A stretch of DNA of 64,000 nucleotides, from contig CAYFNH010000001.1 of the NCBI GenBank assembly GCA_964344435.1, positions 5,303 through 69,302 of the forward strand, written 5' to 3'. A program made the translations under genes and the position numbers. The DNA is from an uncultured Piscirickettsiaceae bacterium. Lineage in GTDB: Bacteria > Pseudomonadota > Gammaproteobacteria > GCF-002020875. The notes under the pieces are model-generated. The model made no database searches. It was not told the DNA's origin and was given only the letters and a program-made list of their open reading frames with translations. Below are positions 1,826 to 17,846 of this stretch, in pieces (positions within the stretch are counted from its first letter, which is position 1; each line of letters begins with the position of its first letter).

Positions 1826-1942
1826 ATCTTCTCGAAAGTTCATTCATACCACGATTCCAGGTTGGCTGCAGACAAGCGACACAAGGATGCGCTCGAGCGT
1901 AGCTGGAATCGTGGTACGAATGAACTTATGCAACGCTTTATA
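1826..1942. repeat. intergenic inverted-repeat element, subtype 1, copy A (MITE/REP-like)
   Basis: The 24-bp terminal inverted repeats are GTTCATTCATACCACGATTCCAGG (1838-1861) and CTGGAATCGTGGTACGAATGAAC (1903-1925). They flank the core ACAAGCGACACAAGGATGCGCTCGAGCG. The flanks (TCTTCTCGAAAGTTC; CTTATGCAACGCTTTA) are also shared with copy D at 17715-17846. Confidence 0.8.
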
Positions 1943-1946
1943 CCGT

Positions 1947-1981
1947 AAAAAAAAGGCCAGCATCACGGGCTGGCCTTTTTT
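1947..1981 (-). terminator. rho-independent terminator (bidirectional shape) downstream of the fdx-coaD-rsmD operon
   Basis: A8 run, then stem GGCCAGC, loop ATCACGG, stem GCTGGCC, then a T6 run. On the minus strand the hairpin is followed by U8. Confidence 0.75.
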
Positions 1982-2005
1982 CCCAGTTGACGCTGACCCT
2001 TTCTG

Positions 2006-2251
2006 TCATGCGGTCAACTTTTCATACTTGGCCTGCAGCGCTTCCTCACTCTCTTCATGGTTCGGATCTGGCAAACAGCAATCCACAGGGCACACCTCTA
2101 CACACTGCGGCTCATCATAGTGACCAACACACTCGGTACACTGGTCGGCAATAATCTCGTAGATTTCGTCACCCTGAAAGATTGCCTCATTGGGGCACTC
2201 GGGCTCACACACATCGCAGTTGATACATTCATCGGTAATATATAGTGCCAT
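2006..2251 (-). CDS. yfhL: YfhL-type 2x[4Fe-4S] ferredoxin
   Basis: The 81-aa product [24 protein letters not shown]...[21 protein letters not shown] carries two Cys clusters. It closely matches E. coli YfhL / Pseudomonas Fdx. Confidence 0.85.
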
Positions 2252-2321
2252 CGCTTAAAGTCCCTTTAAAGTCCCTGTGAAAATTTCCTGAAGGAATTCC
2301 CTGCGGATTGTTGAATCCACC

Positions 2322-2816
2322 TCATTGTACACCACGGCCAAATTTCTCTTCCAGCGCCCGCTGCACATTTTTCCGTACGAAGGGGCTGATATCTCCCCCC
2401 AGACGGGCAATCTCCCGCACCATGCTGGAGGAGAGGTAGCCATACTGCTGTGCCGGAGTGACAAACAGGGTCTCGATCTCGGCAGCGAGGTGACGATTCA
2501 TCCCTGCCAGCTGAAACTCGAACTCAAAGTCGGATACTGCACGCAAGCCACGCAAGATGGCATCGGCCTGTTGAGCACGGGCAAACTCCACCAGCAGCCC
2601 CTCAAAAGGGATCACCTCCACCGCAGGTAGCTCGGCCAGTGCCTGCTGTGCCAGCGCTACCCGCTCCACGGTACTGAACAGGGGCTGTTTGCTACTGGAG
2701 TTGCAGGAAGCAACCGCCACCACCACCCGCTCGAACAGTCGCCCACCTCGCTCCACCAGATCGATATGGCCATTGGTAATGGGGTCAAAGGTACCTGGAT
2801 AGACCACGGTGCGCAT
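2322..2816 (-). CDS. coaD: phosphopantetheine adenylyltransferase
   Basis: N-terminus [24 protein letters not shown], the classic CoaD T/HxGH nucleotidyltransferase motif. Length is 164 aa. Confidence 0.92.
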
Positions 2817-2819
2817 GGT

Positions 2820-15026: not shown

Positions 15027-15140
15027 TAAAAGTGATGGCAGTCCTGATCTGCGGCCGTCTGTGGGCAAGGAAGCCCACTGTAGAGCGACACAGAGATGTG
15101 CTTGAGCGTGTCGCAGACAGGAGCTGCCATTACTTTTAAA
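15027..15140. repeat. intergenic inverted-repeat element, subtype 2, copy C
   Basis: The TIRs are TTAAAAGTGATGGCAGTCCTGATCTGCGG and CGCAGACAGGAGCTGCCATTACTTTTAAA. There is an internal hairpin GTGGGCAAGGAAGCCCAC and the core GAGCGACACAGAGATGTGCTTGAGCG. It lies between the coaX 3' end and the start of the hybrid kinase. Confidence 0.8.
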
Positions 15141-15319
15141 ACCATTGATACAGGCGTATGAAACCCATTTCCCCGCAGACAGAAACGCTTGACAGGAGCT
15201 CCTCAACTCCCCGTTCTGCTTTGCAGTCAACAGACTACCTGTATACCGATCCCCCCATTATGCCAGTGATGGCTTTACTTGACCATATAGTTCAACAATT
15301 TCAAAAATAGCCGCGACCA

Positions 15320-16042
15320 CTATGGCATGGTTACCAACGCAAGCCCCTGCAGTATCAGATCTTCCACTATCCGAAAAGGCAGCCCCAGCTGTTGCTGCAG
15401 GGCTGCCGCATCCCCACCAGTCAGTATCAGTTCAAATGCCCCCTGCTGCTGCTCGATCTGTTGCAACAGAACCTCGACCACCCCCGGCTCCTCTACCGAC
15501 TGAGACATCAGTGCCTGTGCCGTGGCAGTGCCCAGCAGCTCCCCTCCCACCCGATCACTCTGGCGCAAATGAGGTGCATTTTGTAGCAGTGTCTCCATGG
15601 TGGAGCCAAAACCGGGCAGGATATTGCCCCCTCGATGGTGGCCACTGCGGTCAACATAGTCGATGGTTACTGCAGTACCACAATCGACCAGACAGAAGGC
15701 GGTATGCAGTTGCTCCCACGCCGCGACCATCCCCAGCCAGCGATCGATGCCCAGCTGCTGTGGTTGCCGATATCCGTTGTGCAGCCCCCTGCAAACCACC
15801 CCTGTCTTCACCTCCTCAGCCTCCATGCCCCATACCTCGACCAACCAGCACTGGAGCTGCTGGAAGCGGCGCTCACCGGCGCTGTTGCTGAGGAATATAT
15901 GCTGTGGAGCGGGACGGTTATGCCACTGCTGCACGACGCTTTGCGCTGCCGCCCACGCCACTGCACCCCGCTCAACCAGCTTCTGCTGGTGCTGCCAACC
16001 CCACTTAATACGGCTGTTGCCGGAGTCGATCAGCAGATTCAA
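15320..16042 (-). CDS. coaX: type III pantothenate kinase
   Basis: NLLIDSGNSRIKWG is the N-terminal ASKHA motif. The start is taken at the TTG at 16042, immediately after the birA stop. The upstream ATGs would overlap birA. Confidence 0.8.
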   Translation of the reverse strand: MNLLIDSGNSRIKWGWQHQQKLVERGAVAWAAAQSVVQQWHNRPAPQHIFLSNSAGERRFQQLQCWLVEVWGMEAEEVKTGVVCRGLHNGYRQPQQLGIDRWLGMVAAWEQLHTAFCLVDCGTAVTIDYVDRSGHHRGGNILPGFGSTMETLLQNAPHLRQSDRVGGELLGTATAQALMSQSVEEPGVVEVLLQQIEQQQGAFELILTGGDAAALQQQLGLPFRIVEDLILQGLALVTMP

Positions 16043-16043
16043 C

Positions 16044-17051
16044 TCATTCTGTCCGGGGAGAAACGGGCCGGGAGGAGAGCCGCAGGGATACATCCCCACT
16101 GAAGTGACTGACAATTTCACCATCTTGTTCTACCCGCAGCGCTCCGTGTGGATCAATCCCGCGGGCAATACCGTGAATGACCTCTCCCTCCTGGTGGATT
16201 GCGACCGGAAGATCCCGCACCCGGTCGAGCCGCTGCCACTCCGAGGAGATTGCATTCAGCCCACGTTGCTCGAACTGCTGTAACAGAGGAATCAGATGGT
16301 TGAGCAGCATGGCCGCCAGCCGGTTGCGCGAAGGCGGTGACTGGAGATGGTGAGCCAGCGCAGTCCAGGGCTGATCGATCCGCTGCTCGACATCGGCCAG
16401 CGCTATATTCAGCCCCACCCCAACCACTACATCGGTAGGCCCTTCACTCTCCCCCTCCAGCTCAATCAGCACCCCGCCCAGTTTCTGATCACGATAGTGC
16501 AGGTCGTTGGGCCATTTCAGTTTTACCCCCTCCAGCCCGATGCTCTCAACCGCCTGTGCCAGGGCAACCCCAACCACCAACCCCAAACCGCTCAAGCTCA
16601 TCAACCCACCCGGGAAGCGCCACAACAGGGAGCAGTACAGGCTTCCGCCAAAGGGAGACAGCCACTGCTTGCCTCTGCGTCCGCGCCCGTCAGACTGATG
16701 CTCTGCCAGCAGCACGGCACCCGAATGGGCGCTGCCATCACGCAGACGGCGCATCAGTTCACTGTTGGTGGAGTCACAACTCCAGAACCGCTCCACCCCA
16801 CTCAGGCTAGTCGCCACCTTCGCATCGAGTTGAGCCTCTATCTCCTGGGGGTTGAGCAGAGTCAGTGCCGATGGCAGCGCATATCCCTGCCGCTGTTGCG
16901 AATGGATCTCGACCCCCAATGCCTGCAGCGCCTTGACCTGTTTCCAGACCGCCGCCCGGCCAATGCCGAGAGCGCTACCCAGTGCGGTACCACTGTGTAG
17001 CGCCCCATCCGCAAGTCGCTGCAGCAGCTGCTGCTGTACCGCAGAGATCAC
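16044..17051 (-). CDS. birA: bifunctional biotin-[acetyl-CoA-carboxylase] ligase / biotin operon repressor
   Basis: An N-terminal HTH is followed by a ligase core with GRGRRGKQW. Length is 335 aa. Confidence 0.9.
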   Translation of the reverse strand: MISAVQQQLLQRLADGALHSGTALGSALGIGRAAVWKQVKALQALGVEIHSQQRQGYALPSALTLLNPQEIEAQLDAKVATSLSGVERFWSCDSTNSELMRRLRDGSAHSGAVLLAEHQSDGRGRRGKQWLSPFGGSLYCSLLWRFPGGLMSLSGLGLVVGVALAQAVESIGLEGVKLKWPNDLHYRDQKLGGVLIELEGESEGPTDVVVGVGLNIALADVEQRIDQPWTALAHHLQSPPSRNRLAAMLLNHLIPLLQQFEQRGLNAISSEWQRLDRVRDLPVAIHQEGEVIHGIARGIDPHGALRVEQDGEIVSHFSGDVSLRLSSRPVSPRTE

Positions 17052-17692
17052 TGTGCCGCAGCCAACTCCTTGGCAACCAGATATTCAATTACCTCGAACA
17101 TCTTTCCAGTACCTCCGGCAGAGCCGGCATCGACCAGATATTTACCAGCCACCACCACTGCCGGCACCCCTTGAATGCCCGACTGACGGGTCATGCGATA
17201 GGCCTGTTTGACCCGGGTTTGCACCCCGAAAGAGCTCCAGGTTTTTTCAACCGTCTCTTTGGGTACCCCCAGCTTCTCAAACAGCGCCTTGATTTCCCGC
17301 TCATCCTTGGCCAGATTGCGGTTTTCATTCAGATGGATACCATTAAACAGGGCCGGATGTGCCTGGTCGAGCACCCCCAACAGCGCTGCGGTATAGAAGG
17401 CCTGTGCGGCAGGAGCCCAGCTGGCACCCAAGATCGCTGGCTGCATCTGGAAGTTGACCCCTGGCGGGTTCTTTTCCAGCCACTCATGCACCACCGGCTC
17501 GAGGTGAAAACAGTGGGGGCAGCCATACCAGAAGTACTCCCGTACCTCGACCTTGCCCGGCTCCTCAACGGTGCGCAACGGATCGTTGATCAGGGTGTAC
17601 TCCACCCCCTCCATAAACTCTTCTGCCACACTGGCCCAGCTCAGCATCAGCCCTGCAATCAATGCAACCGCTGCAATCCATCCTCTCTTCAT
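17048..17692 (-). CDS. dsbA: thiol:disulfide interchange protein DsbA
   Basis: Signal peptide MKRGWIAAVALIAGLMLSWA and the CPHC active site (YFWYGCPHCFHLEP). The start is taken at the internal ATG at 17692. The longer ORF-track start would run into the repeat element. Confidence 0.88.
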   Translation of the reverse strand: MKRGWIAAVALIAGLMLSWASVAEEFMEGVEYTLINDPLRTVEEPGKVEVREYFWYGCPHCFHLEPVVHEWLEKNPPGVNFQMQPAILGASWAPAAQAFYTAALLGVLDQAHPALFNGIHLNENRNLAKDEREIKALFEKLGVPKETVEKTWSSFGVQTRVKQAYRMTRQSGIQGVPAVVVAGKYLVDAGSAGGTGKMFEVIEYLVAKELAAAQ

Positions 17693-17714
17693 ACTTGTAC
17701 TCCCTTCTCTATAA

Positions 17715-17846
17715 GTCTTCTGGAAAGTTCGTTCGTACCGCGATTCCAGGTTGTCTGCAGCCATGGATGGCTGCGGTCAAGCGACACAAGGATGTGCTTG
17801 AGCGTACCTGGAGTCGCGGTACGAACGGACTCATGCAATGCTTTAA
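17715..17846. repeat. intergenic inverted-repeat element, subtype 1, copy D
   Basis: The TIRs are GTTCGTTCGTACCGCGATTCCAGG and CCTGGAGTCGCGGTACGAACGGAC. The core is TCAAGCGACACAAGGATGTGCTTGAGCG. Relative to copy A it carries a 16-bp palindromic insertion CCATGGATGGCTGCGG. Confidence 0.8.

Follow-up and report, generated by a model that had tools for sequence, protein, structure and literature searches.

What kind of element sets copy after copy of one palindromic unit between the genes of a short stretch of chromosome, and which part of it is kept by selection? This question is raised by 64,000 nucleotides from an uncultured Piscirickettsiaceae bacterium (contig CAYFNH010000001.1, positions 5,303 to 69,302; this whole stretch is called the window below), where four inverted-repeat elements, copies A, B, C and D, lie within 18 kb. 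In an original prediction, made from the sequence by a model, they were described as a new family with two subtypes of terminal inverted repeat (TIR) around a conserved 25-bp core. Here, we show that the copies belong to a structured, non-coding family found almost entirely in Gammaproteobacteria, that its members are gained and lost like mobile DNA, and that two hairpins with GGA loops are conserved in it while the surrounding helix changes its sequence and keeps its pairing. With moderate confidence we propose that they are similar to MITEs, the miniature transposable elements with inverted repeats, and that their sense transcript would be a decoy for a single dimer of the regulator CsrA/RsmA.

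Common core and three-way junction

The 25-nt core, AGCGACACAAGGATG(Y)GCT(Y)GAGCG, occurs four times in the window at up to three mismatches, each time on the plus strand (starts 1875, 9487, 15084 and 17780), and is absent from dinucleotide shuffles of the sequence, so that chance is no explanation for its sharing. A covariance model built from the wider-family alignment scores the same four copies in the 64 kb (D 114.6, C 100.6, B 93.1 and A 66.8 bits), and besides these and the remnants described below no further copy is present. All four fold far better than their shuffles (z = -5.4 to -8.5), and in B, C and D the strand with the core has a fold 6–10 kcal/mol better than that of its complement. 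Whole-element identity amounts to 75.5% for A/D and 78.7% for B/C and to 62–67% between these two subtypes; exact alignment shows arms that differ between the pairs, a similar centre and the core in all four. In these respects the predicted copies are real.

Each copy is a three-way junction in which a long outer helix, P1 (the predicted TIRs), closes two hairpins, P2 and P3. P2 consists of a variable stem and a loop with GGA, P3 is the conserved core GAGC-G-ACA-CARGGA-UGU-GCUY, and both loops have the form A(N)GGA. In the family alignment, whose members were selected by their core, the P2 loop CA.GGA.G is nearly invariant and the P3 core invariant. The P2 loop reads AUGGAU in copy D and many relatives and AGGGAU, AGGAU or AAGGAA in others, the P3 loop reads ARGGAU, and both contain GGA in nearly all members.

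The structure is supported by covariation among 48 non-redundant family members. All three helices (P1, P2 and P3) are found by RNAalifold, and compensatory changes affect 27 of the 34 pairs, among them every one of the 22 modelled pairs of P1, a helix that reaches 30–50 bp. In this alignment 87.6% of cells pair, compared with 36–44% when the partners are slid, and the covariation score is 0.69 versus 0.15–0.18, a value reached by none of 500 shuffles. A second test on a model-fitted alignment gave a similar outcome; for P3 that alignment is uninformative because the P3 variants align as insertions, and they were read by eye instead. The sequence of P1 is wholly different between genera and even between two Marinobacter species, yet its pairing is nearly perfect. 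In copies found with the covariance model the P3 stem varies too (UCCA/UGGA, UACA/UGUA, CCCC/GGG, by eye) while its loop remains A(N)GGA(U/A). This means that the truly conserved parts are the two GGA loops and the GAGC...GCG junction.

Several details of the original prediction change in the light of this architecture. The two pairs do have different arms, but the helix P1 exists in a great many covarying versions, and the arms represent two of them and not two “completely different” recognition ends of a transposase. The arms, given as 24–30 bp, are complementary over about 45–50 nt with mismatches, and homology with relatives extends the elements slightly at the predicted sites (Table 1), to 122–139 bp. 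The 16-bp palindromic insertion assigned to copy D is in fact a deletion from copy A: 16 nt that every other family member has, namely the loop of P2 and its 5' half, are gone, and a single GGA loop is left. A core in the same relative position is indeed shared by all four copies, but its sequence is not fully kept: copy C (ACAGAGAUG) has GAGA in place of GGA, and copy B reads GAUCG for GAGCG. Among the window copies only B and D retain both GGA loops, 25 nt apart, so that the set looks partly decayed.

Strand asymmetry and orientation

The two strands of P1 are not equivalent. Read on the core (GGA) strand, its imperfect pairs comprise 147 G.U versus 42 A.C (about 3.5 to 1), with 51 versus 8 in the inner stem. 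The orientation of the copies relative to neighbouring genes is random (20 opposite to both, 15 in the same direction as both, 10 and 10 mixed), which argues against a purely UTR-borne element (UTR, untranslated region of a messenger). The G.U bias is also seen where both neighbouring genes are antisense to the copy (21 versus 6). As it persists regardless of the neighbours, a single-stranded form of the GGA strand appears to be under selection independently of read-through, and the simplest reading is that this form is RNA.

The same counts bear on an explanation in which the elements act in cis, like repetitive extragenic palindromic (REP) sequences and the bacterial interspersed mosaic elements (BIMEs), ERIC or Correia elements, by termination, protection of 3' ends, processing by RNase III/E or creation of promoters. 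The GGA loops would then, if at all, recruit CsrA to the host mRNA without titrating it. Such a role would suit the position of the four copies, each between the end of one gene and the start of the next: copy B lies in sense orientation directly at the hslU stop codon, with U4 after its P1, copies D and C lie 17–35 nt upstream of start codons, and an end of C gives an outward match to a sigma-70 promoter. ERIC, YPAL and Correia elements have been reported to affect neighbouring genes by termination, 3'-end protection, processing or promoters (PMC2229807). Nevertheless, neither the random orientation nor a G.U bias that holds even if both neighbours transcribe the other strand is expected of a cis-acting structure, and the conservation of two GGA loops above all else across orders is left unexplained. 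We consider this explanation quite unlikely.

Distribution in other genomes

The wider family was collected with the core pattern GCGACACARRGATGYGCTYGA in one genome per species, which gave at least 107 loci. According to the original prediction, matches occurring equally inside coding sequences would speak against a discrete intergenic unit; 3 are chance matches in coding sequences, and the remaining listed matches are almost all from Gammaproteobacteria. Marinobacter, Catenovulum, Neiella, Oceanisphaera, Zobellella, Thiohalomonas and Lysobacterales have one to a few copies, whereas several metagenome-assembled genomes (MAGs) contain dozens: at least 45 near-identical ones in the “Piscirickettsiaceae” MAG ERP019367_co1_32 (co1_32 below), in which the P1 arms are near-perfect, and about 30 in MAG S010. 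Among the matches listed, copy number per genome thus ranges from 1 to at least 45. The covariance model reveals many additional copies in other genomes, often clustered, with different P3 stems and the same GGA loops. Viral contigs gave no core match, and a BLAST search with copy D found no match in 72,556 plasmids.

In the co1_32 locus L077 the core of the copy downstream of polA is masked as a run of N (3715–3724) in the genome collection used, which means that scans with the core pattern undercount copies. Tight clusters of 3–5 copies of different subtypes on alternating strands are found in Neiella, Catenovulum and Oceanisphaera (Table 1) and echo the window with its four copies and remnants within 18 kb. 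Neiella and Oceanisphaera copies lie amid other repeats; in the Neiella cluster the elements are interleaved with one of the form ...TCGAGACGCCGTGAATACTTCCATGTAGGCTCTGCTGCCGC...GCGGCAGAAGCTCGAC.

Filled and empty sites

Comparison of orthologous spacers, one of the checks named in the original prediction, reveals presence–absence polymorphism. Copy B is missing from the hslU–DUF971 spacer of four relatives (loci L110–L113; HslU identity 88–93%), where the spacer measures 56–68 bp versus 190 bp in the window, and in the alignment B appears as one block inserted right after TAATAT. Copy D is missing from three relatives (L114–L116; DsbA identity 68–82%) in which the order cytochrome c4 gene, terminator and dsbA is kept; its junctions are clean at TA, between GAATTA and TAGAGAAGGGAG (GAAT-TA[...]TA-GAGAAGG). 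Both inserts are of ~135 bp. The spacer that holds copy C, between coaX and the kinase gene, is 129 bp in L114, the sole relative with conserved synteny there, versus 339 bp in the window (210 bp shorter). The family model detects no copy in these seven relative loci (~111 kb in total). Conversely, a site that is empty in the window, between polA and a conserved terminator downstream of it, is occupied by a copy in MAG co1_32, which contains truncated copies as well.

The window copies have the TAT...ATA-like ends TAT(C/A/G)A(A/G)TC...TT(G/T/A)A(T/C)(A/T), and those of co1_32 are TA|TCAATCGTTGC...GCAACGATTGA|TA (TA|TCAATCG...CGATTGA|TA). Decayed elements are present in the ftsY–hslV spacer, which contains two abutting, internally deleted remnants: positions 7291–7311 match the reverse complement of the left end of copy A at 18 of 21 nt, positions 7310–7323 match that of the right end of copy C at 14 of 14, and both remnants share a central TA. 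This spacer is a synteny breakpoint relative to L110–L113, where xerC stands upstream of hslV, and the coincidence hints at a rearrangement mediated by the elements. A look for an autonomous insertion sequence (IS) with the same ends, which would match TATCAATCG..., gave only fragments among the family loci examined. Altogether the elements behave like mobile DNA that is gained and lost, or are at least recent insertions. They are non-coding inverted repeats of less than 300 bp with many dispersed copies and with both filled and empty orthologous sites, which makes them MITE-like.

This behaviour bears on the view that the copies are ordinary immobile genes for small RNAs (sRNAs), i.e. Rsm/Csr-like sponge paralogues that arose by local duplication and whose arms reflect old divergence under a pairing constraint. 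The strong covariation, the GGA loops and the strand asymmetry would all fit, as would the clusters, which resemble tandem sRNA paralogues, and the flanks of Catenovulum copies, which are alike (by eye) in two species and suggest orthologous retention at the same sites. Immobile genes, on the other hand, do not account for the clean insertions B and D missing in close relatives, the far shorter C spacer in one of them, a MAG that has truncated fragments besides its 45 or more near-identical copies, or remnants that consist of ends only. Nor are the loss of a GGA site in two of four window copies and the lack of a GacA box upstream of 50 copies (see below) expected of them. We regard this view as very improbable; it fits the data less well than a mobile decoy, and so does action in cis.

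Relationship to TwoAYGGAY, Ysr224 and Csr/Rsm RNAs

At the curated thresholds of Rfam 15 no match was obtained in the window or in 18 diverse family loci. At permissive thresholds the top match is TwoAYGGAY (RF01731), with 32.2 bits (E = 0.0019) for copy D and 34.9 bits for locus L053, the gathering threshold being 43. Rfam places TwoAYGGAY in clan CL00106, which we take to be the Csr/Rsm clan. The motif was described as occurring in Clostridia, in gamma-proteobacteria and in metagenomes of the gut; its two hairpins have loops of the form AYGGAY and lie inside a closing P1 that is “often very large”, for instance 24 base pairs, and among the aligned sequences are several from Psychromonas ingrahamii whose second hairpin reads ...GCACAUGGAUGUGCU... 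(Weinberg et al. 2010).

The likeness comprises the very long P1 around two adjacent GGA-loop hairpins, the occurrence in gamma-proteobacteria, the multiple copies in Psychromonas ingrahamii and the second hairpin of that species, GCACAUGGAUGUGCU, which is near the window core. In contrast, the P3 loop ARGGAU has a purine at the Y of the motif (two AUGGAU loops do occur in sister subtypes), the clade of the elements has a 25-nt core and a GAGC...GCG junction of its own, and insertion polymorphism has no mention in the TwoAYGGAY descriptions consulted. Judged from sequence and fold, the elements are most probably a divergent gammaproteobacterial variant of this orphan motif. Thus the predicted family stands as a discrete, multi-copy, intergenic inverted-repeat family, but its architecture is not new.

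A second relationship concerns Ysr224 (RF02770, Yersinia sRNA 224), which has been reported among the most multiplied sRNA annotations. Sister-subtype copies with P3 = GAGCCCCCAGGGAUGGGUUCACGGCG match it at 21–27 bits, on the strand that does not carry the GGA loops (L084 571–702 and 4375–4509; L090 2167–2290). The reverse complement of its model, GCGCCAGGGAUGGCGC...GAGCCUACAUGGAUGUA...CGGCG, has the same two-hairpin plan. The matches are far below the gathering threshold of 70 and lie on the opposite strand, and the window copies give none. From this shared plan, Ysr224 may represent a relative of the element family, read on its reverse strand; an identity of Ysr224 with ERIC was considered and dropped as unsupported.

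What the GGA hairpins might bind is suggested by their sequence. The consensus for CsrA obtained by in vitro selection (SELEX) is RUACARGGAUGU, with ACA and GGA 100% conserved and GGA in a hairpin loop (PMC4347634), and TwoAYGGAY was predicted to be a CsrA-binding sRNA from motif matches (Gardner and Eldai 2015, PMC4333381). The P3 sequence ACACARGGAUGU agrees with the consensus at 11 of 12 positions, including ACA and GGA, and presents GGA in its hairpin loop. Core and P2 together look specifically like a dual CsrA site. The conserved GGA loops and this SELEX likeness also favour the guess in the original prediction that the core is the functional module, a protein-binding or RNA motif. With the sponges CsrB/C and RsmX/Y/Z the elements would have in common the GGA in hairpin loops and the proposed titration of CsrA/RsmA. 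Unlike the sponges, which are single conserved genes with many GGA sites, the elements have only two sites per RNA and are dispersed, variably present and palindromic, and they match none of the Csr/Rsm families in Rfam.

A proposed mobile decoy for CsrA/RsmA and its main rival

The reading that we favour, and hold to be moderately probable, joins these properties. The core strand would be transcribed from an own or a terminal promoter, and P1, free to change its sequence while pairing is kept, would close the junction of P2 and P3. It would thereby hold side by side two GGA hairpins ~25 nt apart, which most probably bind, within a single CsrA/RsmA dimer, to both of its faces for RNA. Every transcript would be a one-dimer decoy and the copies of a genome together a distributed sponge, a job analogous to that of CsrB, RsmY or RsmZ with their many GGA hairpins within one RNA. 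In addition P1 would protect the transcript from nucleases and, if followed by a U-run, terminate transcription. Spread would proceed by insertion at TA-containing intergenic sites and be followed by decay.

A number of observations weigh against this proposal. Concerning an RNA, G.T pairs are tolerated in hairpins of single-stranded DNA (ssDNA) too, so that strand asymmetry alone cannot tell RNA from ssDNA, and quasi-palindrome correction at the DNA level can mimic the covariation of P1. Concerning its regulation, upstream of 50 copies the GacA/UvrY box TGTAAGN6CTTACA is not found within 330 nt at a consistent position with up to 3 mismatches, a conserved promoter could not be made out, and the window and all family loci examined lack a csrA gene, so that no linkage to it in the genome is seen. 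Matches to TwoAYGGAY stay below threshold and concern only two of the elements tested, with no match at E up to 1 in the Oceanisphaera cluster; the strand assignment of Ysr224, if right, would mean that the antisense strand is expressed in Yersinia. One GGA site is lost in two of the four window copies (A and C), so that selection on individual copies is weak here. Concerning mobility, the TA...TA ends fit a TA duplication without proving one, and copy B is compatible with duplication of AT or TA. No transposase or recombinase gene was seen beside any copy, the systematic check covering the window and its relatives.

Some of these points favour the main rival, a mobile element that works purely at the DNA level. 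One strand, as ssDNA, would fold into a forked hairpin whose core is the site of a transposase or recombinase, with HUH or Xer/integrase-type enzymes acting on folded ssDNA as candidates, like those at IS200/IS605 ends, attC sites or the attP of CTX phage. Any RNA would be incidental and the likeness to CsrA sites coincidental. Insertion polymorphism, decay products, high copy numbers, random orientation and the near-perfect arms in the high-copy MAG would be expected of such an element; strand-specific recognition of ssDNA would also produce the strand asymmetry, and neither Gac boxes nor linkage to csrA would be needed. It offers no reason, however, why A(N)GGA is kept independently in both loops while the stems change, or why P3 equals the SELEX consensus at 11 of 12 positions. 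Known ssDNA systems such as attC and IS200/IS605 ends conserve their recognition sequences at the base or ends of the hairpin and not at its apex. The similar flanks of the Catenovulum copies and the lack of a transposase or recombinase beside the copies checked also fit it poorly. We judge this rival unlikely.

If the mobile decoy is taken one step further, TwoAYGGAY-class RNAs in general would be the payload of a mobile element, a transposable high-affinity decoy of CsrA/RsmA, and not ordinary sRNA genes. We put this forward only tentatively, as possible rather than probable. If true, the pool of free CsrA would be tuned, and neighbouring genes rewired, by the number of copies (1 to >45 per genome) and by the places where they are inserted; alternatively, the payload may exploit CsrA for the stability of the element's own transcript or for its mobility. 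TwoAYGGAY has been an orphan since 2010, and its sole functional proposal is that of a CsrA decoy, for which no experimental test was found in the literature searched; neither the mobile-like gain and loss nor the hairpin close to the SELEX consensus was found reported there. A large gammaproteobacterial clade is missed by the current Rfam thresholds. The proposed binding is directly testable, as the family occurs in hosts that are in culture and tractable (Marinobacter, Catenovulum, Neiella, Oceanisphaera, Zobellella) and its hairpin is essentially SELEX-optimal. If it is real, a decoy of a post-transcriptional global regulator would be spreading as mobile DNA, which would tie mobile-element load to Csr/Rsm regulation, and genomes without an annotated CsrB/Rsm-type sRNA would contain hidden CsrA-binding RNAs. 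For annotation, such repeats should be flagged as bearing a structured RNA instead of being treated as anonymous palindromes.

Comparison with known repeats

The resemblance to Correia elements suggested in the original prediction holds as far as MITE-like insertion and loss are concerned. With Correia/NEMIS, ERIC/IRU, YPAL and RUP the elements share a length of 100–200 bp, lack of coding capacity, long inverted arms and terminal TA. Also common to them are a scatter of many copies between genes, orthologous sites that are either filled or empty, long hairpins predicted for the transcripts and the possible creation of promoters at the ends. In those MITEs the terminal repeats are conserved, whereas in the elements the arms are hypervariable and covarying and the apex is conserved across orders; sequence similarity was not seen either.

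The equally suggested REP/BIME likeness extends to the intergenic, palindromic, multi-copy and sometimes clustered nature of the elements. REPs are palindromes of 20–40 bp that bear a conserved GTAG/CGTC tag and are associated with transposases of the RAYT type (PMC3733652). The elements are 120–140 bp long and conserved at the apex, not at one end, and on size and position of the conserved part REP/BIME identity was rejected. Short palindromes with GTAG/CGTC tags were not noticed in the copies read, no pattern search for tags or RAYT genes having been run.

Other readings were discarded too. A sigma-54 promoter in P1, TGGCA(C/G)-N8-YYGCA in B, C and co1_32, has a GG-to-GC spacing of 13 instead of 11 and is confined to that lineage. 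Integron attC, retron, group II intron and ribozyme were rejected by inspection and have no Rfam support. In attC sites the ends are conserved and the centre is variable, a pattern opposite to that of the elements, for which reason the attC reading was rejected.

Copies in the window and their surroundings

Table 1. Copies and remnants of the element, terminator-like hairpins beside two of the copies, and clusters in other family loci (numbering of the window, in the last row that of the loci named)
Feature	Position	Strand	Details
Copy A (A/D subtype)	1821–1942	+	P1 arms about 1831–1860 and 1903–1932; core/P3 1875–1899
Terminator-like hairpin, bidirectional	1950–1985		G+C-rich with A-run and T-run on either side, read from sequence; between ferredoxin gene end and copy A
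Two abutting, internally deleted remnants	7286–7335		ftsY–hslV spacer; ATCAAT/ATTGAT motifs
Copy B (B/C subtype)	9418–9553	+	P2 9463–9482, loop CAGGGAUG; core/P3 9487–9511, ACAAGGAUGU
Copy C (B/C subtype)	15015–15150	+	P2 15062–15077, loop AAGGAA; core/P3 15084–15108
Copy D (A/D subtype), most intact	17710–17848	+	P2 17755–17776, loop CAUGGAUG; core/P3 17780–17804, ACAAGGAUGU
Terminator-like hairpin, bidirectional (AAAAAAGGGCCGC...GCGGCCCTTTTT)	17905–17935		between cytochrome c4 gene end and copy D; kept in relatives without D
Clusters of copies	L017 4054–4818; L028 5163–5818; L084 581–4672; L102 26–1006	alternating	family model

As predicted, none of the four copies lies inside a coding sequence; all are intergenic at junctions of a gene 3' end and a gene 5' start among ordinary housekeeping genes, and the open reading frames (ORFs) that cross them are spurious. 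Copy A is downstream of a ferredoxin gene and upstream of a minus-strand histidine-kinase gene, whose start is 36 nt away; from its sequence, the hairpin next to it would also terminate a sense transcript of copy A. Copy B follows the hslU stop codon directly (TAA|TAT), with DUF971 on its other side, and its P1 is followed by CUUUUGG. Copy C is located between coaX and a minus-strand hybrid histidine-kinase gene, 35 nt upstream of the latter. Copy D lies between the cytochrome c4 gene and dsbA, just before the ribosome-binding site and 17 nt upstream of the dsbA start codon.

A scan of 1–20 kb for promoter and terminator consensus sequences gave counts equal to the shuffled expectation. Its only hits related to the elements are the inner P1 of copy B with a T-run and an outward match at the left end of copy C. 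The latter, together with the flank, forms the sigma-70-like CTGCCA-17-TATATT on the minus strand (15041 to 15013), directed towards the kinase gene. On this match a -10 box may come from the terminal TATA of copy C, which has been described of Correia elements too.

A weak model match at 19732–19810 was rejected as an extra copy and corresponds to the terminator hairpin on the polA side. The histidine-kinase gene beside copy A is a minus-strand ORF with a membrane segment, a PAS-like region and histidine-kinase motifs, which runs from near 1785 off the left end of the window (1–1785). It is omitted from the ORF list, and the 235-aa plus-strand ORF at 6–713 is its antisense shadow. Finally, an unrelated AT-rich inverted repeat at 57853–57959 has 40-nt arms that are 75% complementary and 27 nt apart, and it scores weakly with the family model on both strands (12.8 and 12.3 bits).

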